This document shows positions 1,667-59,982 of a stretch of 64,000 bases of DNA, piece by piece. How positions within the stretch are numbered: position 1 is the first letter of the stretch; each line of letters starts with the position of its first letter. Below the pieces are notes generated by a model. The model searched no databases, had not been told where the DNA came from, and saw only the letters and a program-made list of their open reading frames with translations. Location of the stretch: positions 682,001 through 746,000 of the forward strand of contig OZ237761.1 in the NCBI GenBank assembly GCA_965178125.1, read 5' to 3'. This stretch comes from Bilabrum cf. latius (taxonomy: Eukaryota). A program made the position numbers and the translations under genes.

Positions 1667-2234
1667 TCAAGTCAGGGTCTTGGCGAGCTTCGCGCTGGGA
1701 GGGGCGAGCACGGTCTTCCATGCCTTGCGGCTGGCTTCGATGGCGCGATCGTGGTCGCCCTCCGCGCTCGCCAGCATGGCGAGCGCCTGCTCGGCCCACC
1801 CGTGCGCTCCTCGCCGCATGGCCCGGTCCATGCCGTAGGACTACAGGCAGTGCAGGCTGCAATCGAGCTTGCCAACTCTTGTCACCAGTGCGGAGGCTCC
1901 GCGAACCAAGGGTGCCCCAGTGGCCTCGCAACGGACCAGCGCAATCTGCGTGATGGGGCAGTAGTGCATAATGGCAAGCAAGCGGCAGGCGGCCGCTGCA
2001 CCAGCGACACCGTACTCCGACTGAACCTACTTCTGCGAGTGGTTTACCAAGTTTGAGCACTATTCTCCACCTGGGCAGTATAATCAACCTACCGACTGAA
2101 AGCTAGTTGGTCACATTCCTCACGCGAATCGACAGCGATACATCGGATGATCCGACCGCATCTGACGGTGGTGCTGGACGACCAACTCCAAAATCTAGCT
2201 AGAACACAAGGTATTTATACTTTATGCGGACCAT
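1667..2234 (-). CDS. POP5: RNase P/MRP subunit POP5 (Rpp14/Pop5 family), 2 exons, ~158 aa, 3 in-frame TAG
   Basis: Exon 1 (2234-2124) reads MVRIKYKYLVF*LDFG...SLSIR, matching the Pop5 N-terminal MVRxKxRYL motif. GT-AG intron 2123-2033. Exon 2 (2032-1667) reads K*VQSEYGVAG...IMHYCPITQIALVRC...ALVTRVG...LHCL*SYG, matching the Pop5 core pattern. Ends TGA. TAGs at 2199, 2027 and 1841. Confidence 0.85.
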
Positions 2235-19700: not shown

Positions 19701-20716
19701 TCTTCCTCCTCCTCCTCCTCGTCCTCGTCCTCGATCTTGCCCAGGGCCAGGTTGCGCCTCTCCGCCGCCAGACCGGCGGCCGTCGGGGCTTTGCGCGGCG
19801 GCAGCGACCCCCCGTGCTGGTTCCGCAGGTGGGACCGCATGGCCGCGATCGCTCGCTGCTGCCGGCCGTGCTGGCCCGCTGCGTGGTACTGCCGGGGCGC
19901 AAAGGCCCCCACGTCGCACACAGGACCCTCGGTCACGACCAGGTAGTAGATGGACGGCGGGAACCTGGCCCCTCCCAGGCGCAGCATGACCCGGCACTGC
20001 GAGGCAGCGTCCAGCAGCTCGGCCTCCCTGGGGTTGATCGCGCGCAGGATCTGGCGAGGATCGCCCCGCCCCGAAAACTACCGAAGCAAGTTCTTAAAGT
20101 GCGAGAACACCGCGCCGTAGCTGCGTCTCCAGTACATGCGCTGGATCGCGAGAGCGGCCCAGTCCTCCTCGGACCATCGGGAGCGAGCATCCTGCTGCGC
20201 AGCCAGTGCAGGGTGAATCGGCCGAGCCGCCCTGCCAGCTGCTTTTCTTCGGTGCTGCAATCTCTCTCTCGCTTCTCGCCACGCGTCCTGGATTTCCAGG
20301 GCGGCAATCTAGTAGACAGGAATCCTCGGCCATACGTGATTCCTGGCGTACCACTTTGCGACCAGCGCTCCGCGCCACCAAGCCTGGACTATGGTTGCAC
20401 AAAACTCTCTGAATACTTCTGGCGTGAGTTGCTGCTGCAATTGACTCGCCGAAGAACCGCTCAGAGCCACACCATACGACGCCCCGGCTTCAAGGCGAGA
20501 CATGCACTTGGCCACGAGGGCCTCCCCTCCATGGACATTGTTTTGCTGCTCTGACTATCTTCCACCGTGTCTGCGCCTCACAGCCACGCCACGCCATATT
20601 TTCTGCATGAGCACAGCCGCTACCTGGGAAGTTAGAATAGGAAATTCCCATGGCTCGCGCAGGGCTCGAGTTCGTCTTGATCTTGGCCATCGCTGCACGT
20701 ACGGTAGAAGTTCCAT
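16745..20716 (-). CDS. C11orf65: C11orf65/MFI-like IQ-motif protein with long low-complexity insertions; ~8 in-frame TAG; 5' end uncertain (further exons possible to ~20872)
   Basis: IQ-like motifs (VQAWWRG, IQDAWR, IQRMYWR). The family core GDPRQILRAINPREAELLDAA..LRLGGARFPPSIYY, GWYEREENCGWRP, KEWLLRMY and EDLLQWSHQLDFDAY*W all lie in one frame joined across TAGs. First non-TAG stop is TGA at 16745. Confidence 0.75.
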
Positions 20717-23074: not shown

Positions 23075-25312
23075 TCACCCGTCCAGCACGGACCACTGCG
23101 ACTTGCCCACGGAAGGCACACCGAGGGTCTTGAAGATCTGCTCGTAGTCCTTGCACGCCTCGGCGTCCTTGCGGAACTTCTTGGCAGGGGCCTTGCGGCG
23201 CCGTCCGCTCTCTTCGTCTTCTTCGTCGTCGACGATCTCTGCCGGGATCTCTCGGTGGAAGCCCATCATGCCCAGCGCGAAGCCCATCTTCCTTGCCTTC
23301 TGCTGCATCGTCTCGCGGAAGGACTGCCCACTCGTGTGGTAGAACTCAGCGGCGCCCAGGTGGTTCGAAGGAACTGCATGGATGCTCAGCAGCGTGCTTA
23401 CATTGCCCTCGGCCAGCTGCTCCTGCCCCGCCTGCTTCTCCTCCACCTGCCTCCTCCTCGCCTCCTCGAAGGCTGCCTCGGCTGCAGAGGCACCCGCAGA
23501 TTCAGGGGCCCTGTCCTTAGGCGTGGGGCCCGATCCCGAGGAAGAGGAGCCCGCCCCGCTGGCGGCAGGGGCTTTCTTGTCCGCGGCCTGGCCCGCCTCT
23601 TCGAGGGCCTCGTCGAGGTCGGGGATCTCCACGGCCGCCATCACCGCCCGCCCCGAGTCCTCGTCGCCCGCGGCGCCTACACTGCCCGAGGGAGCCAGGC
23701 TGGCGAACTAGGAGCTCGCAGATGAGGAGGAAGATGAGGAAGAGGAAGAAGATGCCGATGAGGATGAGGATGAGGACGAGGACGAGGCAGGGGCCGGGGC
23801 AGAAGCTTCGGCGGCTCCTCCCTTGGCAGCCCCGAAGCTCCCCATGGCCTCGTCCTGCACGCGGAAGATGCCTGCGCACATGGTGCCCGACTTGGAGCCC
23901 CGCGCGATCTCGAAGGAACACTTGTTCCCTGGGTCCTGTAGTGCCTCCATGAGGGACTTGAGACCCTCTCTCGCGGGATTATCGGCGCCCGCCTTGAGCC
24001 CGAACTGGTGGGTCGAGTCGACCTCGCTGCCTTCCGCCGTGAGCACCAGCGAGAGCTCGTTGGGCATGGCCTTGGACCCACGGCCAAAGGCCCCGCATGC
24101 AATCAGCTTGCCATCCTCCACCTGCAGGGTGGAAGGGGTAGCGAGAGTGGAGTGGAGTTGAGTGGAGTTGAGTGGAGGGGGGCGAGGCTGTGCGAGCATC
24201 GATTCAAGTTGTGCACATGGCCTAGTCAATGCTAGAGGAACTACTGGCAGGGGGTGCACGAGCGCAGTTTCGTCTGCATTCATGATTGCTAGCCATCCTT
24301 AATTATTTCCGTTGTCTCCCTCACGCTTGAGTCCACGAGGCCCTCCAGGAAATCGACCTGGGCCTGCTGCAGGGCGCGCGGGACCTTTTTCTGGAGGTCC
24401 ACAGCGTGCTTGCCGGTGATCGACAGCAGCTTGGCTTGGGCGGGGGCCAAGCCGAGGGTCCTGCAATGGGAGCAGACGGGAGAATATTTGTGCGGGAAAG
24501 GGCTGGGAACGAAGCCAACCAACGCTTGCTGCGCATCCAAATATCCCCCGAGCTTGCTCGTGGTGCAGCCTCTCGGGTGCTCACTTCAGCTCATCAACAC
24601 CGCGTGCGGCGATCTCTTCAAGCTACGCCGGAGTGCGGATGTGGTTCTGTACCAGGACTTCTGCGCTCTTGGTGCCCACGGAAGGGATGGAGCGCATCAG
24701 CTGCTGAGCGGCGAACTCGGGGTTGTCCCGCTTCTCTTGAGCAACCTCCTCGAGCTCATCGGAGCCAGATTCAACCATATCCACGATCTTCTTGATGGTT
24801 CCTTTACCTACGCCCTTGATGGGCTTGAGTTTCTTCTCGATCTGTTTCGGATCAAGCGTCGAAAGGTCGACAGGCATCTGCGAGAGAATCTCAGCCAGAA
24901 CGGGAGCTGTGTGGCGTTGTATTCGATTCCAGGCAGTCGCGCGAAAGCAAACAATTAAAACGCTATCACTTCTAGCAAGCACCATCGGCGGGCATGCGGT
25001 TTTAAGCCTCAATGGAGGAGGCGAACACTTGAAACCGTGGTGCGTGGTCGCACGAGAGCTCACCAGTGCGATTGCCTCAGCCGCGGCCTTCGTTCCCCGT
25101 GCGCGGAAGACATTGACTCTATCTTCAGATATCTTTGACCGGCATATCTCCGCGTACTCCAGGAGTTGCTTGCAGAGCCGTGCGTTGTGGTTGGTCCCGT
25201 CGCTGAGAGAAGCGGCGTCAACACGCTCCTCCTTCTTTGCTTTCTTCGCCGGTTTTCCAGCAGAATCATCTGCAGATCGCTTGCGCTTGCCACCCATCGA
25301 CTTCTTCGGCAT
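23075..25312 (-). CDS. Family X DNA polymerase (Pol beta-like) homolog, apparently catalytically inactive; 4 exons, 2 in-frame TAG
   Basis: N-terminal NLS (KRKR..KKAKK); 8-kDa domain with HhH IKGVGKGTIKKI; second HhH IPSVGTKSA; KKVPR; palm CGAFGRG; thumb FYHTSGQSFRETM..ARKMGF. Introns 25063-24878, 24584-24461 and 24324-24122. TAGs at 24623 and 23708. Ends TGA. Confidence 0.8.
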
Positions 25313-25449: not shown

Positions 25450-27270
25450 TCACATGGCATGCTGTCTCGATTTCTCGACTCTGTATGCGCACGTATGCCA
25501 CACTAGCATCGCAGCAGGTCCTCCAAATGCATTGACGGCCCACACGGCGTCAGATAGGGGTCCCCGAGAGGGCAGCTCCCCCGTGCTTGCGTCCCACCCG
25601 CCAAACAAAGCCAGCGCGGCCGCAGCAGCCAGGCAGAACGCCAGAATCCCAGCGAACCATAGCTCCATGGCAAGCCAAAGCGTCCTTCGAACAGTCACGA
25701 TAGCCCGCAGAGCGCCATGCCAGCAACCGACTGCATCCACCCTCCCACGGGAACCGGAGCGTACCATGCTATCAGTCGCACCAGGCGAACCGAAAATTGT
25801 CCCTTGCGGCGCCACCAAGGCCAGCACGGCCCCAGGCAGCAGCACGCCAAGCACCGCCCCGCAGAGAGCCACCTGGCCATGCGCCTCTGCACCGGCGAGG
25901 AGAGCGTGCTGGTGCCTGGCGATGAGACCGCCGGGGGACCAGTCCCTCCCTACTGTGCTCCACAGCAGCACCGACCACGCCATCGCCCCGCATGCAGCCG
26001 CATAGACTTGCGCTGTCTAGTGCCCACTCCCACTCGGGGCGCACGGGCCACACGCGATTCCTATCCACTGGCAGCCTCGCTCCTCCCGCCCTGGTCCGGC
26101 GGCACCCAGCGGATGCTGCCGACCCAGTGCCCATGCCCCGGCCGGCAGCACATGCCCACTGGCGTGCCACAGCTCCCCCCTCGTCAGCCCAAACTTGTCC
26201 CGGAGGCGACGAGGGAGAGGAAGAGGGGCCGTGACGGTGACGGTGTGCGCGTCGGAGGCTCGGCTCGGCGTCCTGCCCCTACCAAGTGCGGTGGCATTGA
26301 ACGGTCTCATAACCAGGAAGAGTATAATTTCTTGAACTGCCAGCACAGCGACGGAAAAAACGAGCACGATGCCCATCCAATCGACCGGAGACTGCAGCAC
26401 GCCGTTGACACGCAGCCGCAGCCACTGGTACTCTGGGTCCCAATACGCACCCCATGTCAACTCCATCGGTGCACCCGGCAGTAACCAGTCCGGAGGGGGC
26501 ACTGGAAAGGTCCACCAGAGCCACGGCTTGCCCGCTAAATAGTGGCGCACCTCCTTTGTGCCAAGCCGCCAGTCTGGCATCGAGTCGCGGACGTCCAAAC
26601 GTCGCGGCTCCCAATTCTCGTGCTGAGCGAACAAATTGAGAAAGTCTTGGTCCACTGGAAACGTGTTGTCACCGAGAACTGGGACCAATTCGAGAGCTTT
26701 ACGAAATGTAGTCGCGGAGGGCTGCACGATCAAGATTCCAGAATTCAGGTATAGCCTCCCTTTCTTCATGAACTCCATGTATGGCTCGCTTTCTTCCAAA
26801 TCTGATGGATTCGCTGCGCCGCACCACACGGCTTGCGAACCGAGAGCGTCTGCTGGTTTACCAAAGCAGCGATCGAACACTGTGGAAGGCTCCGATATTA
26901 CCCTGGTGTCCCCATCCACAAACATAACCTATGTGTACTCTGTCAAATTTAGAATAGCAAGCTTGAGGTATTTGCCGTGCCATTCCGGGGGCAGAAACGA
27001 CTTCCGATCAACGGCTCGAACATCCAGCCCTTTGGAACGCAAGGAAGCCAGGGTGGCTTCTTCCAAATCGCCCTTGAAATGAAATACTACGAGTGGAGGA
27101 AAGTCTGGCTCGGTGTTCTGCCGCAAGCTTTCCGCTAGAACCTCTATCGCGGCGCGATACTCGCCGTCTTGAAACAGCACCGTTGCCACTGCTGGTCGCT
27201 CCTTGGATGGAAAGCCAGTGCATCCCAGAGCAAGAGCTAATGCCCAGAATAGCATGACAGGACGGTTCAT
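25450..27270 (-). CDS. Glycosyltransferase family 8 (glycogenin/PGSIP-like) with C-terminal TM segments, ~606 aa, 2 in-frame TAG
   Basis: Signal peptide, KLAILNLTEYT*VMFVDGD (DxD), LNSG, DQDFLN and HY..GKPW motifs. Three track ORFs in one frame joined by TAG at 26929 and 26017. Ends TGA. Confidence 0.85.
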
Positions 27271-33314: not shown

Positions 33315-34265
33315 GTGAACAGCACTGCTCTTTGTATTCTGCGGTATGATGCAGGAGAGGCGACGGTCTGCCAAGTGTGACCGTTTGCGTTTGATTGCAG
33401 GTGAAACACGCAACTGTGAGACAGGAGCCACCTTATCTCTCAGACTAGAATTTACAACGATGTAAGGACAATACAAGATCACTGACACCCATCGTTTCGA
33501 ATCTCACACAGCTGAGATGCACAGACAATGCTGCGGTGCGTTGGGTGTGTCAACGATCGATCAGCTGACCCATCCGAAAACAAAGGGGGACTGGGGTTTC
33601 AACTAGAATGCACTTGCACTCACAATTTGGTTTGATTAGGATGGTGCCTGGTGGCAGCCACGCTTCTTTTGGAACAAAAATTTCGCGCTAGGATAGGCAC
33701 GATCTAGCACAGACCTGCCTCCGGTCGCAAGCTCATCACATTTGCGCGTGATGTGACGAGCGAACTGTTGATCGGACGATTCATACCACGGAACGACCTT
33801 TATGCACTCAGGAGAGGTGGTCAAGACATCAGAAGTTGGTGTATGCACTTGAGCGTCATAATTGGGACGTACATGCAGGCGTCGAAGGAGGTGAAGAAGA
33901 ACAAGAGGGGGGGGCACTGGCACAGGCGACGGTAGTGCGGTAACAATGAGATGACGCAACGGGAGGGAGGGGGGCTCCAGGTGCCAGGCACAAGGGAGAC
34001 GCGAGTGGCAGTGGGTTGACGCGAGTGGCAGTGGGGTGCATGGGCAGCAGCGCGCAGAAAAGGCCAACGCAGCAGCGCGCAGAAAAGGCCAACAGGTGGG
34101 TGGATGGTTGGGACGCATGGCAGCTCAGCCAGGACATGTACACACAAGCTGAGTGGATGGAAACAAGGTGGCGATGAGCGAACAGGCCACAAGGATTTCA
34201 GGGCAGAGAACGGGGACGGAAGGCCGTGCATAGACGAGTCCAGTCGAAGTGCACGAGGTGAATGC

Positions 34266-35950: not shown

Positions 35951-35992
35951 TGAATCAAGCATCCACGCATGGATGAACCAAATTCCGGATCC

Positions 35993-41409: not shown

Positions 41410-43746
41410 ATGGCGGCTGCAGGAAGTTCTTCAAAGTCTATGACTGCTGCGAAAGAGGTTGCTTCTTGGGACGCGAACCCGAAAACGGCCGAGGCCGCGC
41501 AGAAGGCCTCTGTGGATCCAGCAGAGGCTGATCGATTGTTCGGTGCAAGGCTGGCGTTCGGTACCGCCGGGCTTCGAGGCCCCATGGGACCTGGATCCAA
41601 CATGATGAACACGGCAGTGGTCATCCAGACCGCGCTCGGGCTCGCCAAGGCCTGCAAGGAAGCGGCTGGCACCGCCGCAGACAAAGACATGCAAACACGT
41701 GGCGCTGTGATCGCTTTCGACCATCGCGCAGCAAAAGAGTGGGATGAAAGTAGCGAGCGAATGGCAGCAGGGGCTGCGGCAGCGCTGGCAGCGAGTGGGA
41801 TGCGCGTGGTCATGTTCGATCGATACATGCCAACCCCGATGGTGCCGTTCTTGATGCGCGAGCAGGACGCCTTGTGCGGGTGCATGGTGACCGCCAGTCA
41901 CAACCCGAAGGAAGACGCCGGATTCAAGGTGTACTGGGCTGGTGGCTCCCAGATCATCCCCCCCGTGGACGGCAACATCGCCCGCGCGATCCAGGAGACG
42001 CTGGACCCCCGCGCCACGCTCGCCTCGACCGAGGGGGAGGCCAGCGCAAGCCTCGGCGCCTGGTGGGGGCAGGCGAGCACCGCAGAGGAGTGCTTCGCCG
42101 CCTTTGGAAAGGACTCGCCCATGCACCGCGCCACGGGCGGCTTCGTGGAACGGGTAGGTCCCGAGGCTCTGGACCGGTTCGTGGCCAGCGGCAGGGACCG
42201 CATGTGCCGCGGTGTGGCCGCTGGGAGCGAAGGTTCGCTGGATCGACCCTTCGCGGTGTACACGGCGATGCACGGCGTGGGCACTCCGGGGTTACTGCGT
42301 GCCATGCGTGCCTGGGGACATGCCAGCGGGGGCCAGGGGCTGGAGGGCAAGTACGGTGGGGGCGGATGGGCGGAGGCAGGTGCCGCCGCTGCCGGAGCCG
42401 GTTCCGATGCTGGTGCAGCCGAGCCGCTGCGCGGGATCCTGATTGTGGACCGGCAGTGTTCCCCGGACCCGTTGTTCCCCACGGTGGAGTACCCCAACCC
42501 CGAGGAAGGCAAGGGGGCGCTCGCCCTGGCCTTCGAGGAGGCCCGGCGCTCCCACGAGGCGCAGGGGGGCGGCAAGGGGGAGGATGACGAGTGGAAAGGG
42601 CCCAAGGTGGTGGTGGCCAACGATCCAGACGCCGACCGGCTGGCGCTCGCTGAGAGACTGGAGGTGCCTGCAAGCGCGGGCGACGACGAGAGCTGGAGGG
42701 TCTTCAGCGGCAATGAGACTGCGGTGCTGCTGGCCGATTGGGCGCTCCGGGGTTGGTAGGAAGGCAGGGCGAAGGAGGGCTTCGCCAGCAAGGAGGAGCA
42801 GGAGGCGTGGGAGGGCAAGCCCGGGGGGGAAGAGGGGAAGAGGCCGCAGCCGTACATGCTGGCCACAGCTGTGACCACTCGCGCCGTGTCCCGCATCTGC
42901 AGCAGGGAGGGGCTGGGGTACGCCGACACGCTGACCGGGTTCAAGTGGCTGGGGGCCCGCGCCAACGCCCTCAGGGAACAAGGACACCCGGTGCTGGCCA
43001 CTTTCGAGGAGGCCATCGGGTTCTGCTGCGGGGGCGTGGTACCGGACAAGGACGGGATCACGGCTGCCTGCGTGGCGCTGGAGATGGCCAAGCACTGGAG
43101 CGGCGAGGGCTCGTCGCTGGCGGGGCGGCTGGGCGCCCTCTACGAGAAATACGGCTTCTTCGCCAGCGCCAACGGGTACGGAGTGACGTCATCACAGGAG
43201 GTGATCCGATCCGTGTTCTCCGGGCTCCGGGGGGAGAGCAAGGGCGAGGGGGCTGGCGGGGCCGCTGGTGCCAGCGATGGTGACGCCGGCTGGAAGCGTT
43301 TCGGGGCCGAAGCGGGGGCGGGATCGGCAGGTGCCGATGATGCCTGGCCCAAGGAGGCGAAGGAGGGCGCCGCGGGCCTGCTGAGTGAGCTGAAGGCGGG
43401 CACGAGGGAGGAGGGGCAGGAGGGCGCTCCCATTGCCTTCAGCGTGGTGCAGGTGCGTGACCTGACCGAGGGGCGCGCCTTCGACTCGCAGTGCGAGGGG
43501 GGCAAGCCCGATCTGCCCATGTCCTCCTCGCCCATGGTCACTGTGTGGCTGCGGGGGCCCGAGGGATCCGGAGTCGAGGGGGTGCTGACGCTGCGCACGA
43601 GCGGCACGGAGCCCAAGATCAAGTACTACGCCGAGTGCAGCGCGCCAACCCGGGAGGGCGCGGAGAGGGCGGCGGCCGACTTGCGGCTGGCCGTCATCGA
43701 GATGGTGCTTCGGCCGGGTTCCAACGAGTTCGACAGGATCAAATGA
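41410..43746 (+). CDS. PGM2: Phosphoglucomutase-2/phosphopentomutase family, ~778 aa, 1 in-frame TAG
   Basis: FGTAGLR, TASHNP (phosphoserine loop), PNPEEG and DPDADR precede TAG 42757-42759 (RGW*EG). In the same frame after it come TGFKW, FEEAIG, DKDG and RTSGTEPKIKYY. Ends TGA. Confidence 0.93.
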
Positions 43747-45039: not shown

Positions 45040-48000
45040 ATGCAGAATCTGTCCAGGCGACAGGACGCGCTCTGGCGCGTTCTGGCGCTAGGATGCGTTG
45101 CAGCAGCAGCGGCCGCCGTGCACAACTGCGCGCACGATGCGCACGTAGAGCAAGTGATAAGCGAGAGGGCAACAAGGGGCAAGTCATCAGAGCTAGCACC
45201 AAGGGGCGTGCTAGCCTCGCAGCCCGAGCACAGCCGCGCGGATCGGCATCGCCGCCTAACTCAGTCTCCCGTTTGGCGCCCTATGCGATTCAAGGTTGAT
45301 TACTATGACATTGATGCGGAAATGGATGCGCAGACCGTGCAATACTTCAAGAAGATGGTGATTGAGCCCGCAGTAGAGTACTTGCATGGCGTGCTGATGG
45401 TACGGCAGCGGTCCGGAGACTCTGGCAGCGACAGCCACCTGCAGCTGGGGTACTCGTGCCCGAGCTACTACGTCACGAGCGGCAAATGCTCAAGGCTGGA
45501 CACGGACCGCGAGTGCAGCTCCAGCAGCGTGGTGCTGAATCGCACGTATTTTGGAGCTGCGAGCACGTTCTCGCTCGAGGGCGGCCGGTGGGTTGAGACA
45601 ATCGAACCGGCCGGCGGGCCCGGCGCCCCCGATGCCGATTTCGTGCTGGCAATCAGCGCGTCGACCACGGGATCCTGCGGTGGAGGCACCCTGGCGTTTG
45701 CTTCCACCTGCCTGCGGGACGACATCGACCGACCGGTGGCAGGCCGGTACAACCAGTGCCCCGGGAAGGTGTCCCTTGAGGCCAGCGAACTCAGGTCCAT
45801 GCAGCAGACGGCGCTCCACGAGATCCTGCACGCCATCGGGTTCAGCTCACAGAACTTCATCTACTTCAGAGACCCCGACACGCTAGACCCCTACACGCCC
45901 CGCAACACCGCGCGGCCCTCAGTGCTGGACCGCACCGCCAACAGCGTGCATGTGGCCTGCGCGGAACGCAGCGAGCAGGGGCTGCCCGAGGAAATGCTGC
46001 AGTACAGCAGCGAGCGGGGTAACGATCCCATGTGCGTAAACGCCACGATGGCCGGCCTCAAAGGCATCGAGGCTTGCACTCAGAGGGTGGTTATCCCGTC
46101 GGTGCGGGACAAAGCCAGGCAGTACTTCGGGTGCGATGCGATTGCCGGACCCGAGCTCGAGAACCAGGAGTCCAGCTGCCGGCTGGTGGGCTCGCATTGG
46201 GAGCAGCGCATGTTCTCCGGCTCGACCATGTCGCCCACCAGCACCGACTGGCAGACGATTGATCCCGTTACCCTGGCTATGCTCGAGGCGAGCGGGTGGT
46301 ACAAGGGCAACTACTCGGCGCTAGAAGCTGACCTGTGGCCGGGACGGGACTGGGCCTCTGACGTGGGCTGCAACGCGGCACTTTACGAGGCGGGCATCGG
46401 CGGCTCACCCCCGGCGAGCACGAGGACCAACTCGAGCCTCAGGTACGGCGAGGAGCTATTCTGCACCGACACGAGCTTCACCAACAGGTGCTCCTTCGAC
46501 AGGCGGGGCATCGGCATTTGCCAGATCCGGACCCGCGAAGTCCTGGACGAGCGGTACAGGTACTTTGGAGAGACGGAGCCCCCGTACAAGGCGGGTAGTC
46601 GAACTCGGCAAGAATACCTGCCGCACGTGGCTGCCAGCCGCATGTGCGAGGACGAGGGCGAGACGCGGGGTCAGCTCGACAAGGAGGCCGGCCTGTTCTT
46701 CGGCGAGAGCTCGGCGTGCTTTGATGCGACCCTCAAGCTGTCGGACTCTGTCTTCAGCAGCCTCGGCAGGGTGGCAGGGTGCCACAAGTACTCCTGCCAT
46801 TGGCCCGGTCTTGATCGCACCACTGACCCAGTGCTGGAGGTGCTGCTGCACGACAGATCTGGCGATGTGACAAGCAGCGTCAACTGCACCGCGGCCGACA
46901 ACGGGCAGCAGAAGACTGCCGCTGGGTTTGTCGGATCCATCACGTGCCTCCACCCCCGACTGCTGTGCAGAGATGTCGACGACCCGAGACCCGAAGGGGG
47001 AGGAGGCGTTGGGCCAGCACCAGGGATCACGGCCTCCCCTACACCGAGCATTACTGGCACTCCTACTGGCACTCCGACGGGGATGCTGATACCCAGTGCG
47101 ACTCCCTCCGGTACTGGTGTGCCCACGCCCAGCATCTCAGCTTCCATGGGATCCTCTTCCTCTGCCACGCCCAGCGCTAGCACCAGCGCTAGCACCACGA
47201 CGAGCCCGAATGCCGCTGCAAGCAGCTCCAGCTCGCCTCCCACACCAGCAGTGGGAAGCCCGTCGACGAGTCCCTCCTCCTCCGCCTCCCCGCAGCAGCA
47301 GCAGCAGCAGCAGCAGTCGCCCAGCCCATCGCCATCGGGCGCCGGTGCGGTTCCCCCCTCCGACAGCCCCACCGCGAGCGCCTCTACCAGCTCGGATACG
47401 GCCGTTTAGCCGACTCAGGCCGCGGCAACTTCCGATAGCTCCGCGACTGCCCAGCCCTCTGCTGTCGATGCAGCGCAGAGCCCTGGCCCCAGCCCAGCGC
47501 CAAGCACAAGCGCACAGCCCTTGGCCTTCCCGCAGAGTAGAGATGATGATGCAGTGGCACCAGCGCTCAGGGCGGAGGACCTCGAGGCCGAGTACTGCGA
47601 GGGAACAACAGAAGGACTCCTGAGCGCCAGGTGGACCCGGGTGGTGGGCGCACAGCTGCAGGTCTAGCTGGATGCAAGCACTGAGCTTGATCTTGACTGC
47701 TCCATTGCACCTGCCTTCGCAGCAGCGGCGGCGGACGTGCTGTCCGTGGCGCAAGGCAGGATTTCAGTGGCAGTGTTTGCGCTGGAGACTAGCGGCTCAG
47801 GCAAAGATCAGACTGACACGTAGATGTAGGCGGCGCGTCGGCTTCAGAGTGCTGGCAGCAGCGCCACCGTGTCCATCGTAGTAGGTGTGTCGAGCGAGCA
47901 GGAGCAAGCAGACGTGGGCGAAGCCCTGCTGGCTCGCATTGAGGACGGCTCGCTAGAGGTGGCGATCGAGCAGGAGATGCAGGACCGGAGTTCTAGTGGC

Positions 48001-48486
48001 GCACCGCCGGTTGGCCTGGAACTGGAGCTGGAGCTGGGCGGCTCTGCAAGGGCAGGAGGCGGTGGCGTGGTGGGGCAAAGTGGGGAAGGGGGCGCGGGCT
48101 CGCTGGCGCCCGGGCTTTTCTCGGGCACTCTCGAAGTGGAGTCGCCCCAGACACCCGGAGGTGGGGATAGCGGCGATGACGATGACGATGGGGCCGGGGC
48201 TGCACTCTACGCTGGCATCGCAGTGGCTGTGGTTGCCGTGGCTGCAGTCGGTGCAGGCCTGGCGTACTACCTTGGCATGTGCTCCGGGACGGCTGCCCGG
48301 GAGCAGGGGAGCAAGTACATCCCGTCATCCTCTGGCCCCGTGTCGATTCAGTCGTCCAGTCAGGAGGCGAACGGCGGGGTCCATTGTCACGACGACAAGG
48401 AGGGCATCCCTGGCTTCCAGCACCAACGGGGGAGCGACTCGATTGTTGAGAACCCGCTCAGAGAGTCTGTTAGGAACATGGTTTGA
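45040..48486 (+). CDS. Leishmanolysin/GP63-like M8 zinc metalloprotease, type I membrane, ~1148 aa, 4 in-frame TAG
   Basis: Signal peptide, propeptide HNCAHD, HEILHAIGF, SHWEQR, Met-turn, SPT-rich stalk. The frame continues across TAG 47407 and three more into the TM (ALYAGIAVAVVAVAAVGAGLAYYL). Ends TGA. Confidence 0.9.
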
Positions 48487-48757
48487 AAGAACGCGTGGAG
48501 TCAGCACCAGGTGGGGGCAGGTGCAGACTATCTCGACTGCATGAATCCGGATTATGTCAAGATGTGTGGGATGCACGGACACGGACCAAGGCGATCCGAA
48601 CAGGTAACCCCCTGCTGCCGCCTTGTGCGGGCAGCAGCAGCGCAGCCAGCCTTGTGCTTGGCGCGGGCACGTGGTAGATAGACTTGCAGTGTTGACGCAG
48701 TATCTCTTGTTATCATCAGTTCATGTTTTGCCATCCGGATATGGCTGCAGCTCTGAG

Positions 48758-51700
48758 TCACACCAGCTCTGGGTGCAGCTCTGCGCTACCCCTCGGTCCC
48801 TTGCCCTCCGCGTAGCCTTGCTTGCGCACATCAGACCCAGACCCGCTTCTGTCATTGCCCCCCTATGGAGCCACCGTGTCGGGATGTCCCTTGCTCCCAC
48901 AGCACAGGAAGTACCCGCCCCCCACGAGGACCAGGAGACCCACCACCCCGACCACCGCCAGCACGGCTGTACCCGCCCCCTCCTGCAGACCGATCAGTGT
49001 GGGGTCACCGCTCGAGCTCTCACCCTCGAGACTGCCGCTAAACAGCCCGCTCGTCCCATCCACATCGCGCAGCACCAGCGAGACATTCCCATACACTGTG
49101 GCGTTCCGGCCTGCTAGCCCACGCATGAGATCTCCCGTAGACACGATGGCAGCGAGGGTCCTCGTCAGCGTCCAGGCCTCTGCCTCCGTACTGGCCGCCA
49201 CTGCGATTGAGACGTCCTGGGTCACGCCGTTCGAGGGCTGCTGCTGCTGCTGCGCGCGTCTTGTCCCAGAGGTGCTTGCAGCTGACGACTGGAAATCGAC
49301 AGCCACTCGGGTGCTGTCCACACCGAGCAGCAAGCCCACCGTCAGCTGCACGCCACTGGCGTCGCTCTCGCACTAGAGCCGCCGAGCGAGGCCGGACATG
49401 GTTCCGCTGAAGCCACCGACCGCGGGGTAGTCGCTGCCCTCCAGCACGCCCGTGGTACCCGCGCAGTAGGCTGCCCGCTGCTCCTGGGTGAGGGCATGCA
49501 CCACGCCGGAGCCAGGGGATGGGTCCGGGGAGCGGCTCGGAAACACAGGCGTGGGGGTCGGCGTGGGACTAGCTGGTTTAGTTGGCGTGGGGCTAGCTGA
49601 TGAAGTCGGTGTGGGGCTAGCTGATGAAGTTGGCGTGGGGCTGGCCGTCGCGGATGGGGTTATGCTTGAGGTAGGAGTGACAGAGGGCGTGGGAGTCATG
49701 CTCGGCGTTGGAGTGCCAGTTGGGGTGGTGGACGGGGACGGCGACGTGAGTCCACGGCCGCACAGCAGCTGCGGCTCGAGGCAGGTTACTGTCCCGTTGA
49801 ATCCCGGGGCAGGTTTCTCGATACCGCTCTCTCCCCTGTAGCAGACCACCTCTGCGGCAACTTCCCCGGTGGTGTTTCGAACCTCGATGGTGAGTACGGA
49901 GAACACCCCGGTGATGTTGCACGAATAGCTGTAGCACGCGGTTGAGCGGTCTGTCCCCGAGGTTGCGTCAGGCCGAATGAGGCTGGACTCGAAGCACGCA
50001 GAGTCTTCATCAGGGCCATAGTATGCCCCCATATCGCGCTGTCCAGCGGTGTCAATCCCAGTGCTGTCCGCGCACATGACAGGGCTAGCGATGATGCTGG
50101 CGTAGTCGAAGTACCACGTCCCGCCCGCCCTGGAACCGGAGCTCCCAACGATGTCGGCCATGTAGCGCGCACGCTCGGGCACCAGCGCAGTGTAGAGGGA
50201 CCCGGGAAAGGATGACATGGGGCAGGTGCCGCGCCCCCTGCGGTCGAACGTGCACGGGCCCGGCTCTGACACGGCCGCTGGCAAAAGGCAGAACATCTGC
50301 TCCCCGTGCCGAAGGCTGGACTCCGTCACCACCGTGTCATCGACGGTCAGGTTGGCCAGCTGCGCCGAGCTGTTGATGGAGAACGGGCGGTCGTACTGTA
50401 GGGAACAGCCCGCATCTGACCCCCAGTCCCTCCCTGGGCTCTCGTGCAGCGCGCTGTAGTTGCCCTTGTACCACCCGCTCGCCTCGAGCATGGCCAGAGT
50501 GACGCGGGACACGGTGGCGTAGTAGCTCAGGTCCGACGCGTCCCACTCGGAGAACAACGTGACGGACATGGTGTCCTGTGCCAGCGTGCGCGACTCCCAA
50601 TGGGAGGTCAGCTCCCCGCAGTAGCTTGGGAACATGGCCAGCTCTGGCCCGGGGAGGTCGGTGCACCCTGAGAATTCCCTCGCTGCGTCCCTCACTCCGG
50701 GCAGCACGATCCTCTGAGTGCACTGCGCGAGTCCGTTGCGGTTGGCTTGCGAGAAGTTCCTGCACTCTGGCTGGCCCCGCTCCCCGCTGTACCGCAGCAT
50801 GGTCTCGGGCAGCAGGGATGTGTTGGACACGAACAAGGGATAGCCCGAGATGCCTAGGTCACAGCTGACCGTGGTCTGGGTCGCGGGGTGCAGCCGGCTG
50901 CCGCCAGTGCCAGGGGCGCGTCTCACATACGGCTCCAGGGAATCGGGGTCGCGATAGTAGGCGAAGCTCGCGGAGCTGAATCCCAGTGCGTGCAGCAGGT
51001 GGTGCAGAACCCTCTGCCTCTGCAGGTCTCGCCTCCCGAACGTGTCCCCCGCTTGGAACCCAGGGAAGTTGTACCACGCGGCTGCCGGCCGGTCGATCTC
51101 GTCCCGGAGGCAAGCAATCGCACACTCGCCGTTAGTACCCGACCCACACGGCGAGCTGGTCATGCCGGTGACCAGCAGCACAAAGTCGGCATCGGGTGCT
51201 CCCGGGCCGTCGGCGAGGCGGGTGACGCGGGTGTAGGTGCCGTTCGAGGGGTGGAACACGGAGGATTCCGACTCGCCGAAGAAGCTTTGAGGCAGCTGCA
51301 CTTGCGGTGATCCGCACGTTCTGCTTACATCCAGCGCTTTGCAACGGCTCTCGCCGCCCTGGCCCGGCTCGTGCCACGCCGCGCACGGATACGCAAGCGA
51401 GAGGCTGCCGTCGTCGGTTCGCTTTCGGACGGCCAGCAACTCGTGCGCGCGCGAGATTGCCCATGGCAACGTTTCATTAACGAACCGATCCGTCTCCTCC
51501 GCGCCCACGTCCCACAAATTGGAGTCCTGAAGCATGAATTCTGCGTGAATCCGGAGTGGCCGCCATTCGGTCACATCATCTGCGGTCGACAGCCTACGGG
51601 AACCGCTACTTGCTACCTGCATGCGAGGCATCATCTCTGGACCACTTCCAGCTGCCATTCGAGACCGTGTCAAAGCCTTGAGCGCCTCATCGTGGCCACA

Positions 51701-51907
51701 ATCTTGCTGGAGTGCGAAAACAGAATTCGAACGGCTCGGGACACTTGTCGCGCCTCCATGGTCACTTGAGCCGCTTCTCTCGCTAGTCTAGCCAAGCACA
51801 GTAGTTGATTGTGTAGGTTTTCGGCCTGGACTGCAACTAAGGGCTCCATGGATAAATGTCACGGCGCACAGCAAGTGAAGCGCTCCGGTGGCTCGTCGGC
51901 ATACCAT
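48758..51907 (-). CDS. Second M8 leishmanolysin-like paralog with HEXXH changed to HHLLH; type I membrane, ~1049 aa, 3 in-frame TAG
   Basis: Signal [20 protein letters not shown] propeptide, [53 protein letters not shown] (identical to paralog), PT stalk and TM. TAGs at 51788, 49373 and 48863. Ends TGA. Confidence 0.88.
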
Positions 51908-52875: not shown

Positions 52876-55800
52876 TCATTGCGCCCCTTCCGTATCCTTG
52901 ACCCCGCTGCTCTGCACCGAGTCAAGCGGCAGAATGGAGACCATCGGATGCCCCGCCGCCCTCCGCCGGTGCGCTGCCGCCATGGCCCGCCTGGCTTTCT
53001 CCCTCACGCGCTGCTCCTCGTCCTCGCCTCTGCCCGCACCCCATGCCATGGCCCGCGAGCCCGACTGCCTCTGAGCCCCTGTCCGCCTTCCCGCGTCTGC
53101 ACACTCATCGTCATTTCCCTCCTCCTCCTCTTCCTCCGCTGCCGAGTGCATCGGACCCAGGAGTCCCACACCAGCGACAGATGAAGAGCCCATCAAATCA
53201 TCCTCCCCATCTTCGAATTCGTACCCATCTGCAAGAGCGTCTCGCGGCGTCTCTCCGTTCCAAACACGGCTGGAGGCCTTGTCCCGCGCGCGGGCGACCT
53301 CACCGGGCACGTCACGACCAGGACGCAGAAGTCCGGTGCGCCGACTGTCTTCGCTGGAGCCCAAGCCCCCTTCGGATCGGGAGTATCCAGAGGAGGAGTA
53401 GCCGCTGCGGCTTGGAATAGAGCCGGAGGGTGCCAGCGCAGGTTGGAGCTGCCCGCGCTCCATGGAGCTGCCCTGCTGCAATTGTTGCTGTTGGTCCGAG
53501 GGCCGTGGCAAGCTAGTAGTTTTGTAGGATGATGCGGATGAGTCAGTAGATGATCGGGTGGATCGCGCCACCACACGACGGTCCATCACGACCTCTTCTT
53601 CTTCTTCCTCTCCCTCTCCCTCGCCCAGCAATTCCCCCCTGTGCTACTCTCCTGCATCCTGCACAACGAAACCATCGTCCACTGCTGCAATGCCATCCAC
53701 GCCAATTGCCGTATTCATGTTTGGCCTGTGCAATTGGCTGCCCCTGCTTTTTGTCTGCTCTCGTGTCCCACTCCATGAACGGTCGCTGGATGCCCCGCCA
53801 TGCGCGCTCACTGCCGCGGCTCCCTCATTGCCACTGCCAGCAGCGATGACGACTGACTGCTTGTGCTGATGCTAGGGTCTGCTTGCAACAGTGACAGCAC
53901 GGCCATCGGCATCACTGCCATTTCCACGCTTTCTTTGATCCCTGGGATGCATATGTTCCCTGGCCACCTCGATCGAGTCGTGCAGTCCGAGCAGCATGCG
54001 GCGGGCGGGTCTATCACTAGAGTTCACGGGCGTCCCGCGAGAGTGCTTCTGCGGCTGCAACGGCCCCAAAATATTCCCCTTGCCTCCCATCGCACTGCCC
54101 CAGCTCGCTACGGTGGCTTCCTTGGCTGGGAGCGAAGCAGTTGTGGTGGAGCGCGTGGAGGACGAGGAGGGGGGCACGCCGCCGCCCCGGTTCCCTCGCC
54201 GAGGCTGGTGCAGGGCGTGGGCAGGGCCCCCCGTGCGATGGGTGGATGAATGATGCGAGGGCGGGAGGACCTATCCAGGGAACAGTCCGCCCTCGAGAAC
54301 GTCTCCGCTGAAGCCGTGGGTAATCCCAGAAAAATCGCGAGCCTCGCCCAATTCGTCCGACTCGTCGTCCTACTTATCTTCCTCGGGGCTTGTGTCAGCG
54401 TGACTTCCACGGGTATGTCTGAGGTCTTGTACGCGATCTTGACTGAGTTGAACCGCGCGATCATGGCTAATGTCTTGATCAGTCGCTCCAGGGAGCACAG
54501 ATGGATGCTCTCGGTGATTGACCGACCGTGCCATGCCTGCCTCCAGTGACGCTGCCATCGGACCACTGGGCGAACCGTCCACGGCTCCCTAGCCATCGTC
54601 GTACGAATAGGATCGGTCCAGTCCAGCGGTAATCGTCTTGACCACTTGTGAATCCTACTTCGCTTGCACAAGGCCCGAGCGAGACCGGGACACTCCGGAT
54701 GGGTGGGCAGCCACTGCCACTGGCACAGGTGCTTCCGGCCCACATTCAACGCCTGCATTCCCACGACTATTGGCGCTTCCTCGCGTGAGCTCGCCACCAC
54801 TGTGCCTCTCACTTATTCGCTCGTGGGCAGCTGCCGTGTCAGTTGACCGTGACTGGGACCGCACCGGCTGGCGGGAACTGCCGGTGGCAGAGTTTAAGCG
54901 CCTCTGAGCGTCGCCCACGGCCTTTGGGTTGCTCAGCGGCATACCCCCGCTATCCGAAGTGCGAGTAGAAGCAGATTGTCTCTTATTAAGCTTTTCACTG
55001 GCCTCCTCCTTCATGCGACTGATCGCCGCAAGGTGCTCCTGCAGCGTGCCTGCTCCAGCACCCTTGCCGCTGCTGTTGCTTCTGTCCTCGCTGTCTACCT
55101 CCAGCGCACGTGCCCCCGATTCATCAGCAAACAAGTCTGCTTCGATGCTGCCGGTCCATGCAATCTTACGGCCACTGTGCACGTCGGACCGCATCACCCC
55201 CTAGCTGGCTGCCCCAAGCGGAGAGTGACGGCAGCTGCCGCCACTGTACACAGCGCCTGATCGAGCTGAACCGCCCGCCGCCGCGCTGCGGACAGTGTCC
55301 GCTGATCTCGCGCTGAGACCCTCCAATCGACCCACGGATTGCGACGTTACGACAGCCTTCCGGCTCGCACTGAGTTTATTTCCCCCAAGAGCGCTGTCCT
55401 TGGTGTTCATGCGCGAGTCCAGTCCATCCTGCGGGCACCCGATGTGTGCTGCTGTGCCACGCCCCGAGCGAGAGTCACCATTGGTCCCATTTTCTCTTCC
55501 TTCCGCACTATCATCACTCTGGTAGCCTAGCGGGGTCACGGCTGATAGCTTGCCCGCGCGTAACCCATGTACTGCCTTGGATTCTTCCTACTCTTCGTTT
55601 TCATCGCTCGTGCAGTGCACGCACAGCCCAATCCCAAGCAGCACAAGTACTACTACCGCCGCGATTGACACTCCCACCGTCAGCCACATGGAAGTACCAT
55701 CATCCAGCCCGTCCGTCTCTACGTCTTGCCTGCCGACGCCTTCTCCGTCGTCATCGCTAGTTGGCCCCGGTGTCACCACCTAGCCGCTGGGATCCAGCAC

Positions 55801-58800
55801 CAGCGAAGCAACAACAACTTCTCGCAAGAAGGTTCCAGTCCTGCTGGTGCTAGCCAAACCTCCTGATGATGTCACGAGCTAATTAGCACCAGCCTGCAGC
55901 GCGGTACCATTCGTCAGCTGCCTGGAGATCGCCTCCTGCAGTGCACTTGCAACGCCGAACGGGTTACCTGCGTCTGTACCCGGCTGGACGGCCCCTCCCA
56001 ACGGACCGCCAAGAGGGCCATCAACGCCTCCGCTCGAGGTTGGCAGCCCGGTCGCTACCCGCACCTCTATGGCAAACTGCACAATCGCCCCCACTGCTGG
56101 ATCAGACGCGCCGGTCTGATTTCCGCTGCTCTGCATCAGGCGGTTTCCTGCAGCAGTGCCGTCAGCGACTTGTCCAGACCCAGCTGTTGCAGCAGAGGCA
56201 AGCGCTGGGGTGCCTGCAATGACAATGGCTCCAGTCTAGTAGCTCTTGCGGCCCCCATACCAGACTATCCCCTGGCTAGGACTGGTGCCGGTCGCTCGCA
56301 GGCCGAGGATCGCCAGGAGAGCTCGACCACAGGCGATCTGGATCACCCTGGAAGCAGTCACGTTAGAGATGATGCCGCCTAGAGACAGCACATCGCTGCT
56401 GAGCTGTAGATCCAGCGATCCAGTCGCGTTCGCCCGTGCCACTCGCACCGTTCCTGTGGTAGGGGCAGGGGTAGAGGTAGAGCTGGCGGAGGGCACCGCC
56501 GGGCTTTGGGACGGTGATTCGTTCAGTGATTCGTCCACCGCCTGGGGTACGGACGGCGTTGCAGATGGCGACACGGACACTGAGGGGCTTGGGGTCGGGG
56601 TATGACTGGAACTCGGGGTCGGGCTGGGGCACGTGTATGTGGCAGTCTGCACCTTGATCCATGCAAGAGAGCCAGTTGCGTTGCGCGGAAGCCCGGTGGC
56701 CGTCGGTTCGAGCGGCGCACCAATTGCGATACTCATGCTCTATTCATGCGGTGACGACATGATGAGCCCATGGATCACACCCACAGAGGCACCAAGAACG
56801 TAGGGATCTACCGAGCCGGATTGTGCGCCCTCCTGCTAGCCCTCGGGGGGGCATGCCGGTGCGGACTGAAGCCCCAACTAGGCTACTCTGAGTCGCAGCA
56901 CGCGAGGCTCAGTGCGCATGTACCCTGCACGAGTCAGCAGCAGGACATAAACTGCCGGTGATACGCCCAACGAAGGGCTCCCTCGGCCGCTGATGGCAAT
57001 CGCTGCACGGGTACTGCCGTCGATGCTGCCCAGCCTGGCAATCGCAGTACCGAGGCCTTGCCCGTACGGGACGAGTCCAGACAACTTCGTGCCGGGCACA
57101 TCCGCGTACCTAAACCTGCTGTCAATGGTCACTCGGCCGCTGGTAGAAACATTCAAATGGAGGAGGAAGCAGGCCCCGCGAGCCGCCGCCTCGGAGGGCC
57201 GCACGTAGCTTGGCACGCCCAATATCACGCGGGCGAGTGTGTCCTGCTAATGCTCACGAATCTCAGGGATCGCCACTATTGAATCAACCGCGAACCCTTG
57301 ATCGTGCGCACTGTGAGTCCTGAAGTGGCCACTGTCATTGAGGGAGTCCACGTCCAGTGACTGAACCATGCCAACCGTGCCGCTGCCATTCACCCACACG
57401 ATCCAGAGATGGTCCCTCTGGTGGAACGGACACTCAGACGCGACCTATGAAACACACCCACGACTCCGCGCGGTCACAAGCACCTCCATCTCCCCGTCCC
57501 CATCCACGTCGGCAGTGCCGACTGTCTTCCCGAACTACACCGGCGAGCCGTCTTCTACCAAGCCTGCATCGGCCAGAGCGGTCATGTTTCCCATGCTGCC
57601 CCTCAAGCTGTGGCAACCGCTGGCTGATCCATTGCGAAGCAGAGGCACCAGCAGCACATCTCCTGCATCTTCTCTGGAAGCATTCAAGACCCCTGGTATC
57701 CCAATCACAAGCGTACTTACGAGCGCACCCGCACTATCAGATGAATTGGACTGAACTCCACCGTCAGTGGCTCCAATGTAGGCAAGACTGGCTCCGGCTG
57801 TGGCACCATAGCGCAGCAGGGGGGCAGCGCAGTCGGCCCATTCGGCCACACCCGTCCCCGCCCGTGCCCTTGCTTCCTCCACAACATCTACATGCCGAGA
57901 CACGGTACCATGTCTATCGAGGAAGAGGACATGCACGGCGCCAGCAGAGCACGTGCGATTGCCGGCGCGACAAGGTGCACCCACCGCGAGCTCAAGCTCT
58001 CTGCCATCCGCATCCAGGTCACCCAGCGGCACCACGGTGCTGCCAAATGCACCCCGATCATAGCCTCTGCGATGGACCTGAGTGCCAGTCAGCGCATTGT
58101 GCAACACAGGAGCAGGTGCAGCCACCTCACGCAGCGAATCGTTCCGACCGTTCGTGGAAGCACACACACGCACTGCTGACAGCAGCGTCCCGATATCAGC
58201 TAGATCGACGCAGTCCAGAGGACGAGGGGAGCTTGAGATCGAGGGGCTGGACGACACCGCCACTGGTGAGGATGATGGGCTGGATGACACCGTCGCCGCT
58301 GGTGAGGTAGATGGGCTAGACGATATCGCCGATGTTGGGGTCGATGTTGTGGACGGCGAGGGCGAGTGTGTCGATATCCCCCCATCCGCCGACCCACTGC
58401 CACCACATGTCCAATTGAGCGTGCCCTGCAGTACGACAGACCCCCCTTGCTTCGTGTTGCCAACCGCCGTATCCTTCAGGTCCGGAATACCCACCGCAAG
58501 GCGCACTGGCTGGGACTGTGGGAGGCAGGTGCCACTCATGCTGCTGCTGCTGAGGCCGTTTGCGCCGTTAGTCGAGCTTGACCCGTTGAAGCTAGACAGG
58601 AACTCGATGTTCGAGGCTAAAGCGGCCCCGAAGCCCTCAGCAGAGGAGGGAAAGTCCGGGTGGGTGTCGCACTCGTCGCAGGCGTTGGGCAGGAGCTGGC
58701 TCGAGCTACTTGCAGATCCGTCTGAGTTCAATTGAACCAGCCACACGGTGCCATCCCCTGCATCGGGCTGGCCCACTGCCAGCACCCTGCTCACCCCGCT

Positions 58801-59982
58801 TGAGTTCCGTGCCCCGGCTCGGGGCAATCCATGCAGGAACGGGGATAGCGCATATCCGAATTGCACCGAGGAGCTCGCCCCTGGGACCATAGAGCCGTTG
58901 AGCACGGCCGCACCAGCTAGCCCCGTATGGCACGTCCTATTGGCTCCGAGTTCCCCATCGGTGTGCACCCCACATCCTGGATTCCTCCGCAGCACCGCCA
59001 CCGCCCCCGCAGCCCCACCGCTCGCCCCGCCAGCATCCTCTGCAGTCACCTTCAGGCCCACCGCCAGGTCGCTGAGACTGTCACCGTCTAGGTCGCCCAC
59101 CCACGCTACAGACAGTCCAAAAGCGCCCACATTTGCGTCAGCAGGCCAGCCAAGTACTCCCGCGATGCTGCCCGCCACACCGGCCAAAGGGGTGATCAGC
59201 TGCCAGCGGAGCACCCGAGGCTCTCGGGAGAGAGAAATCAGAAACACCGCCCCTTTGCTTTCACCAGAGGCCAGCGACGCGCGGTAGTCAGGAGCACCCA
59301 CTGCAATAATTGAAGCGCAGTCTGGTCCACAGTCCATGGTTCGGTTTGCCGAGAGACTTGCGGGCAGGGCGGCAACCGAGGCCCCAAATTGTGTCACGTC
59401 GTTTACCACATCTGCGAGCCCATCAAACCCCAACATTCCTTGCGCTAGCACATCTTGCTGTTGAGGTACTCCACCAGAATCGACTTCGATGAGATATATC
59501 GCGCCGTCAATACCTGGGAGGTATAAGCCGTGGCTATCCGCGCCAACTGCAACTGTTATTCGCCCTGATACCCCTCGCAGGTGGCCAAGGCCAGCCAAAC
59601 TGGACCCCCCATTAAAATTAAAAGGAATTGTTGCGCTTGCTGAGCCTGAATGCGTAGACAAGACGGAATGTCCGAGCAAAGCACCATCCCGCTTGGTGCG
59701 CAGCAACCAAGAGCGGCGTAACCCTGGAGAGATCGCAGAGACAGCAAAGTCTGCGGTCCCAGATTCGTCAACGTCCCCTATAAATGCAATTGCACGGTTC
59801 GGCTTCAGGGTCGTGTACCACTAGTCCACTCTATTCGCACTGTCAGAATTTGCGAATACCTCGAAGCTTTCCGGAAAGGACAGTGTTGCATTTCTGGCGT
59901 TAAGATCAAACGCAGAACCCAAGGCATACCCTATTATTCCAAAGTATGCAAGAATGAGCATGACATATCGCAGCAATCGCAT
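52876..59982 (-). CDS. FG-GAP (integrin-alpha-like) repeat type I membrane protein, ~2370 aa, with long disordered cytoplasmic tail; ~18 in-frame TAG
   Basis: Signal MRLLRYVMLILAYFGIIGYALG. Repeats such as FGxSV..GDLDGD..DLAVG and AVGAP; S/P/T stalks; TM WLTVGVSIAAVVVLVLLGIGLC near 55620-55690. One frame with only TAG interruptions to TGA at 52876. Confidence 0.85.

Follow-up and report, generated by a model that had tools for sequence, protein, structure and literature searches.

The nuclear genetic code represented in the 64 kb stretch of DNA analysed here (the window), gene-dense eukaryotic nuclear DNA with a guanine-plus-cytosine (GC) content of 61.7%, very probably reads UAG as glutamine. 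UAG would thereby be a third glutamine synonym beside CAG and CAA, with UGA as the main terminator and UAA as the other. This assignment, with glutamate as its main rival, had been proposed in an earlier sequence-only reading of the window. It is upheld here by a codon-level comparison with orthologues, a type of evidence lying outside that reading.

UAG as a sense codon

Over the 17,455 codons of 16 genes in the window, in-frame TAG, TAA and TGA number 88, 0 and 0, respectively, or 90, 0 and 0 when slightly different starts are chosen. The two other frames of the same genes hold the three triplets at 160:39:248 and 131:55:290. The genes end in TGA (14/16) or TAA (2/16) and never in TAG (0/16), and TAG is found within 11 of the 16, with none in the other 5. 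Frames of at least 300 codons cover 53% of the window, a value that rises to 93% when TAG is taken as sense, compared with 55% for TAA and 77% for TGA. Thus, UAG is a sense codon, UGA (mainly) and UAA are stops, and no examined gene needs a UAG stop. The retention of UAA and UGA as stops is seen both in their absence from the frames and in the gene ends that could be aligned between the window and a syntenic metagenomic locus (L001, described below), all of which are TGA or TAA. Contigs of a public sequencing run, X7, whose sample and study differ from those of the best-matching runs, were found to be identical to the window over 8 TAG sites, and these TAG codons are therefore not assembly errors.

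Orthologous evidence for glutamine

A metagenome scan yielded six loci, L001–L006. L001 is 13.9 kb long with a GC content of 54.6% and is syntenic with the window over four genes, with protein identities of 45% and 53% in two long orthologues. It is recoded too, containing 40 TAG in 3,588 codons. L002–L006 are distant homologues (28–32%) with no TAG inside the frame that matched. The genes and sites on which the comparison with L001 and with closer relatives rests are as follows.

16745..20716, minus strand: IQ-motif protein gene with 8 TAG; its L001 orthologue has 19; main source of the orthologue evidence
20309..20311, minus strand: TAG (PVY*IAA); TAG also in L001, glutamine in protein P0001
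20078..20080, minus strand: TAG (LLR*FSG); glutamine in P0001, serine in L001; column variable among distant homologues
17843..17845, minus strand: TAG (YAD*WKV); GAG (glutamate) in L001, with 10/10 flanking residues identical; distant-homologue column D35/N24/E15/S14
23075..24067, minus strand: conserved gene without a Pfam family; CAG in L001 stands opposite its TAG, and CAG here opposite one L001 TAG
24581..25309, minus strand: helix-hairpin-helix (polymerase-beta-type) gene, start approximate; TGA end here, TAA end in L001
4349..16264, minus strand: giant gene with a split protein-kinase domain, 35–36 TAG and a TGA end; start not fixed
6008..6010, minus strand: TAG (FIN*VAGT) in the kinase gene; still TAG in run X7 but CAA (glutamine) in X11 and X12

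Four gene or exon pairs were aligned over 1,693 columns, and the 963 gap-free columns with at least 4/10 identical flanking residues were kept. This filter was passed by 15 of the 32 TAG columns, the other 17 being excluded because they lie in gapped or unalignable stretches. Opposite the 15 retained TAG codons, glutamine was found 8 times (CAG 6, CAA 2), glutamate 3 times, and lysine, serine, alanine and TAG once each. TAG was observed to exchange with CAG or CAA in both directions between the window and L001. In the polymerase-beta-type gene, for example, the TAG of the window faces CAA in L001, and three L001 TAG codons face CAA, CAG and AAG in the window. The same 963 columns show how true codons behave: true glutamine codons face glutamine in 36%, glutamate in 16%, alanine in 12% and lysine in 9% of cases, whereas true glutamate codons face glutamate in 57% and glutamine in 7%. 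At that 7%, at least 8 glutamines among 14 partners would be expected with a probability of 1.2e-6. The log-likelihood (lnL) of the TAG partners is −21.6 for glutamine, −33.0 for glutamate, −38.2 for lysine, −46.1 for serine, −53.9 for tyrosine, −66.0 for leucine and −71.4 for tryptophan, and the gap between glutamine and glutamate is 11.2 and 9.1 at stricter filters. The sequence-only reading had proposed to tabulate the residue facing TAG in aligned orthologue columns. In the small sample compared here, glutamine makes up 8 of the 14 non-TAG partners, and none of glutamate, leucine, tryptophan and lysine is dominant.

Other features of the alignment with L001 were also noted. At L001 6593–13869 (minus strand), synteny with the window is lost beyond the IQ gene. 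This part of L001 holds a frame for a 2,100-codon membrane protein with about 20 TAG and another, FG-GAP-like frame with about 8, and the junction contains a short duplication. The conserved gene at 23075–24067 (minus strand) is 53% identical in L001 and has a conserved C-terminal block. The polymerase-beta-type genes of the window (24581–25309, minus strand) and L001 (about 540–1098, plus strand) carry an insertion at the identical place, which, being open in frame in the window and frame-shifted in L001, is probably an intron.

Close relatives and distant homologues

The N-terminal 339 residues of the IQ-motif protein, used as a query, returned 660 homologues, of which 150 were listed. One of those listed, P0001 (92.5% identical), has glutamine at both of the two window TAG positions that it spans. 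It starts at a GTG after the first TAG of the window gene and stops just ahead of a window CAG, where it probably ends at a TAG of its own. TAG positions of L001 delimit a second protein, the fragment P0002. These proteins were therefore called with TAG as a stop, and the glutamines of P0001 represent real CAA or CAG codons. Contigs of four public runs were also compared with window positions 4349–20800, and 40 of the 983 differences were listed. Among the differences listed, 36 codons are changed, 30 of them synonymously, and the only TAG changed is that at 6010–6008 of the kinase gene, which is CAA in runs X11 and X12. Glutamine is thus present at all three window TAG sites seen in closer relatives, two in P0001 and one in X11/X12.

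Among 148 distant homologues, one L001 TAG that is CAG in the window falls in an IQ-motif column with glutamine in 141 and glutamate in 2. The TAG common to the window and L001 (20309..20311) lies in a column with His 53, Gln 40 and Asn 9 of 148. Of four other confidently aligned TAG sites, two lie in columns led by Arg/Lys, one in a column led by Asp/Asn and one in a column led by Asp/Glu.

Motifs around TAG within the window

The sequence-only reading had argued for glutamine from short motifs, several of them in genes not yet listed.

52876..59982, minus strand: gene of 2368 codons for an FG-GAP membrane protein (beta-propeller of the integrin-alpha type), with 18 in-frame TAG and a TGA end
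57535..57537, minus strand: TAG of SPV*FG, the residue ahead of an FG-GAP repeat; the other repeats of the protein vary at this column
25450..27267, minus strand: glycogenin-like (GT8-type) gene; TAG at 26931 opposite lysine in glycogenin
1667..2234, minus strand: POP5/Rpp14 gene ending in TGA, with TAG in each of its two exons (one intron inferred)
45040..51907, no single strand: pair of convergent leishmanolysin (M8) paralogues, one with 4 TAG and the other with 3
41410..43746, plus strand: PGM2-type phosphomutase gene with 1 TAG in a variable column; lineage marker

All of the named motifs are present, at most 2 bases from where they had been placed. The glutamine codons of DVTQFG (59391–59389) and SSVQFG (58863–58861) and the TAG of SPV*FG (57537–57535) lie in a single minus-strand frame, 59982–52876, and the last stands immediately ahead of a Pfam FG-GAP match. 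HQ*QQ was located at 12952, KEQ*VTQ at 9517, NVLS*L at 8449, AQLQV*L at 47665, ARRL* at 49375, P*HQHKQ at 53874 and YT*V at 26931, and the POP5 motif YLVF*L is also present.

The arguments built on these motifs fared unevenly. For the FG-GAP repeats, the motifs hold, but a glutamine-specific column does not: the residue ahead of FG or YG in the eight repeats reads Q, A, Q, G, A, R, TAG and P, so that glutamine occupies only 2 of the 7 other repeats, and the column is compatible with glutamine as the TAG residue, though weak as an argument. The glutamine-containing contexts cited around TAG carry no such weight. Glutamine was counted 28 times within four residues of TAG, compared with 27.1 ± 5.4 at gene-matched random sites. 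This is the level of chance, and the cited contexts were therefore selected rather than enriched. For comparison, glutamine occurs 40–46 times around true glutamine codons, 28 times around glutamate codons and 28 times around the 88 TAG. The pairing of ARRL* with ARRLQ as equivalent paralogue positions did not survive alignment of the two leishmanolysins with MAFFT and BLAST, which places them about 50 columns apart, and ARRLQ faces a glutamine-rich stretch (TRRAQ...) of the other copy. Two further approaches did not separate the candidates. A flanking-residue classifier recovered glutamine for known glutamine sets in only 63 of 200 draws and is uninformative. A compensation test on the IQ orthologues gave glutamine plus TAG as 65/1323 versus 68/1207 and glutamate plus TAG as 106 versus 84, and is not discriminating. 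Alignments of the kinase C-lobe and FG-GAP regions to PDB structures provided no usable TAG column.

Alternative readings of UAG

Several results weigh against glutamine. Glutamate is the partner in 3 of the 14 orthologue comparisons, one of them, the best single glutamate site (17843..17845), with fully identical flanks. No glutamine was found opposite 15 poorly aligned TAG sites of the IQ gene, which belong to the 17 excluded columns: the partner is glycine at four of them, asparagine at three, arginine at two and proline, alanine, glutamate and leucine at one each, and two sites face a gap. The orthologue sample is small, at four gene pairs, and a single transition turns TAG into CAG, so that glutamine partners would be favoured under any code. 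Two L001 TAG sites with CAG in the window lie in distant-homologue columns of Asp 80/Glu 23 and Arg 47/Lys 35, and the PGM2 column is variable, with Lys 11 and Leu 11 of 41. In comparisons with distant solved homologues, the kinase site faces arginine in PDK1 and the GT8 site (26931) faces lysine in glycogenin. The sequence-only reading had cautioned that the GT8 position is usually lysine or arginine, which proved fair, and that the POP5 position is usually glutamate; POP5 exon 1 gave no match in PDB and Pfam. Together, these distant solved homologues and the PGM2 column would exclude little beyond bulky hydrophobic residues. In addition, glutamate was counted 48 times within four residues of TAG, compared with 30–35 times around glutamine codons and 63–64 times around glutamate codons. 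By this neighbourhood test, the surroundings of TAG appear glutamate-rich and more glutamate-like than glutamine-like, which leans to glutamate.

A decoding of UAG as glutamate by a tRNA-Glu(CUA), as occurs for UAA and UAG (UAR) in peritrich ciliates, would account for these neighbourhoods, for the three glutamate partners, including the one in a perfect context, and for the L001 site in the Asp 80/Glu 23 column. It is nevertheless very improbable: true glutamate codons face glutamine in 7% of columns, whereas TAG does so in 8 of 14; the IQ column holds glutamine over glutamate by 141 to 2 of 148; and glutamine is present at 3/3 sites in close relatives, at one of them through a two-base change to CAA. 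An ambiguous UAG, read mostly as glutamine and partly as glutamate (through mischarging or two CUA tRNAs), or still acting as a stop near transcript ends as in Condylostoma-type codes, is likewise very improbable, if slightly less so. The mixed glutamine and glutamate signal is what ambiguity would produce, and TAG is rarer than base composition predicts (90 observed versus 203) and is lacking in 5/16 genes. However, the share of glutamate opposite TAG (3/14) is in line with that opposite true glutamine codons (16%), the aligned gene ends are TGA or TAA in both species, and TAG codons only 8 and 14 codons from aligned gene ends are read through in the alignment of the window with L001.

Explanations that keep the standard code are weaker again. 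Editing of UAG in mRNA, either U-to-C to CAG or A-to-I to a tryptophan codon, is a degree less credible than a glutamate code. The former would likewise yield glutamine at TAG sites, but tryptophan, the product of the latter, is among the worst fits (lnL −71.4), and TAG is gained and lost between species in the manner of synonymous changes and in all sequence contexts. We know of no case in which about 0.5% of all nuclear codons are edited. That the TAG codons are nonsense mutations, sequencing errors or the ends of tiny in-frame introns is practically negligible in probability. Introns are present here and can end in TAG, and searches with the two largest of the TAG-rich proteins gave no homologue. 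Against this stand the 88:0:0 ratio without frameshifts, the gap-free alignment of orthologues across TAG, the same TAG codons in the independent run X7, and the 30 synonymous changes among the 36 codon changes listed in relatives. For the aligned TAG sites, pseudogenes, errors and micro-introns are ruled out. Also rejected were NCBI table 6, in which UAA and UAG both encode glutamine (0 in-frame TAA are found here, and TAA ends genes), and readings of UAG as leucine, serine, tyrosine or tryptophan, by the likelihoods given above.

Codon usage and proposed mechanism

With UAG read as glutamine, TAG makes up 12% of glutamine codons in the window and 20% in L001, which is lower in GC. TAG density was observed to fall with GC at third codon positions (GC3; rho −0.53, p 0.033, 16 genes), with 77 TAG in 10,989 codons at GC3 <0.7 and 11 in 6,466 codons above. 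This scarcity at high GC3 is what a minor, AT-richer glutamine synonym fed by C-to-T change would show. The code change would be old enough to be common to syntenic species with 45–53% protein identity.

Following the model of PMC5304391, UAG would be read by a tRNA-Gln(CUA), derived most simply by one anticodon change from tRNA-Gln(CUG), and eRF1 would have lost most of its UAG recognition. A tRNA-Gln(CUA) would be unable to pair with UAA, which would therefore stay a stop. Losing UAG as a stop would be cheap in a GC-rich genome with UGA ending most genes, and TAG codons may then have accumulated by CAG-to-TAG drift. No tRNA genes were found in the window or L001 and no Rfam families in the window, and eRF1 is not among the Pfam matches of the window frames.

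Comparison with known codes

Codes in which UAG alone encodes glutamine have been described for Iotanema spirale, Hartmannula sinica, Trochilia petrani and Protocruzia tuzeti, and UAG alone is read as leucine in a rhizarian and three ciliate metagenome-assembled genomes and as serine in Scotinosphaera (PMC11687900). Iotanema spirale (Fornicata) has the same table as proposed here, with UAG alone reassigned to glutamine and UAA and UGA as stops (PMC5304391; PMC9161772). However, it is an anaerobic fornicate with UAA as its primary stop, whereas UGA ends 14/16 genes here at 62% GC. The change is not found in its nearest sampled relatives (PMC9161772), whereas here it is common to species 45–53% identical in protein, and the change in the eRF1 GTS motif is an Iotanema feature. 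In the three ciliates H. sinica, T. petrani and P. tuzeti, the same reassignment uncouples UAA from UAG (PMC11687900). Genes of the phyllopharyngean set stop preferentially at UAA and in 1.7–13.1% of cases at UGA, and their genomes have a GC of 27.4–53.6% (PMC11687900), unlike the UGA-dominant window with its 61.7% GC. NCBI table 6, used by Tetrahymena, Oxytricha, hexamitins, Streblomastix, ulvophytes and Amoeboaphelidium (PMC11687900), likewise has UAG as glutamine, but UAA is not sense here and ends two window genes and the polymerase-beta-type gene of L001. The codon table is thus already known, and what differs from known cases is the lineage and a setting of 62% GC with UGA as the dominant stop.

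The sequenced bicosoecids are Cafeteria burkhardae and Halocafeteria seosinensis (PMC6972860; bioRxiv 10.64898/2026.06.25.734631). The GC content of C. burkhardae is about 70%, and a changed code is described, in the accessible text, for its mitochondrion only (PMC6972860). A search of literature listings and abstract openings, outside subscription journals, bioRxiv supplements and database annotations, turned up no stramenopile or bicosoecid for which reassignment of nuclear UAG is described. The accessible parts of PMC6972860, PMC8345874, PMC10120064 and bioRxiv 10.1101/2025.09.26.678796 contain no such report, nor do those of PMC12220804 with its first supplement and of bioRxiv 10.64898/2026.06.25.734631.

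Gene content of the window

Pfam matches were obtained for 10 of 29 scanned frames, besides one spurious simple-repeat match. The families are THOC3-type WD40, protein kinase, helix-hairpin-helix, cofilin/ADF and glycosyltransferase 4, together with PGM/PMM, mitochondrial carrier, two leishmanolysins, FG-GAP and POP5. A few GT-AG introns were inferred from frame changes. On the basis of these introns and of the eukaryotic families (THOC3-type WD40, POP5, cofilin/ADF, mitochondrial carrier and leishmanolysin), the locus is judged to be nuclear and eukaryotic. Scans of a viral collection with three queries and of prokaryote genomes gave no match, nor did homologue searches with the giant kinase and with shorter lengths of the FG-GAP protein.

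In the giant gene at 4349–16264 (minus strand; about 3,950 codons), some 700 residues separate the DFG region of the kinase from its C-lobe. Further upstream lie hydrophobic blocks and possibly cyclase-like stretches, the latter with no Pfam match. The second leishmanolysin paralogue (48758–51907, minus strand) has HHLLH where the first has HEILH, and therefore probably lacks the catalytic glutamate. A perfect (CTGTC)n array of 337.6 copies with 100% matches, at 34265–35952, sits at the switch from the minus-strand gene run to the plus-strand gene run. At about 20900–22700 (plus strand), ankyrin-repeat-like pieces, recognized by eye, are spread over three frames in an otherwise intron-poor window; this region is apparently one gene with many short introns.

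Lineage

The best PGM2 matches are only 31–38% identical to the window protein. Among the 120 listed, those that are named come from animals, oomycetes, Triparma and a chytrid; ciliates, fornicates and Cafeteria do not appear among the names. Trees of 42 sequences (the window protein and 41 of the 120 listed matches) place the window outside animals plus chytrid (ultrafast bootstrap (UFBoot) 89), among oomycete/Triparma-type (stramenopile-type) and other sequences. Its sisters are the full-length P0207 and P0217, with a support of 0.978 in FastTree but a UFBoot of 72; both are on long branches and, like the window protein, are rich in glycine, alanine, arginine and proline. The compact, intron-poor gene style presumably resembles that of Cafeteria burkhardae and Halocafeteria seosinensis. 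We lean, partly on this presumed likeness, towards a heterotrophic, bicosoecid-like stramenopile.

Implications

The case looks like an independent instance of UAG as glutamine, present in at least two well-separated species and in a genome that is rich in GC and ends most genes with UGA. Few nuclear codes treat UAG and UAA differently; for glutamine, such codes are listed in the accessible part of PMC11687900 only for Iotanema and three ciliates. The case therefore tests whether a code change needs AT richness or UAA dominance. Standard-code gene calling cuts such genes into TAG-bounded fragments, as for P0002, and the lineage would therefore be hidden in protein databases. The chances are about even that the window represents a clade-wide nuclear code with UAG as glutamine in heterotrophic stramenopile (bicosoecid-like) flagellates, GC-rich, with UGA as the main stop and with strains in several public runs. 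If true, the bicosoecid-like reading would be the first nuclear codon reassignment in stramenopiles found in the literature searched. Several public runs contain near-identical sequence, and a strain might therefore be available in which to look for the CUA tRNA and eRF1 changes that are still lacking for most known cases. Overall, if the clade-wide reading is true, the tRNA, eRF1 and proteome would be directly testable in strains from the public runs.

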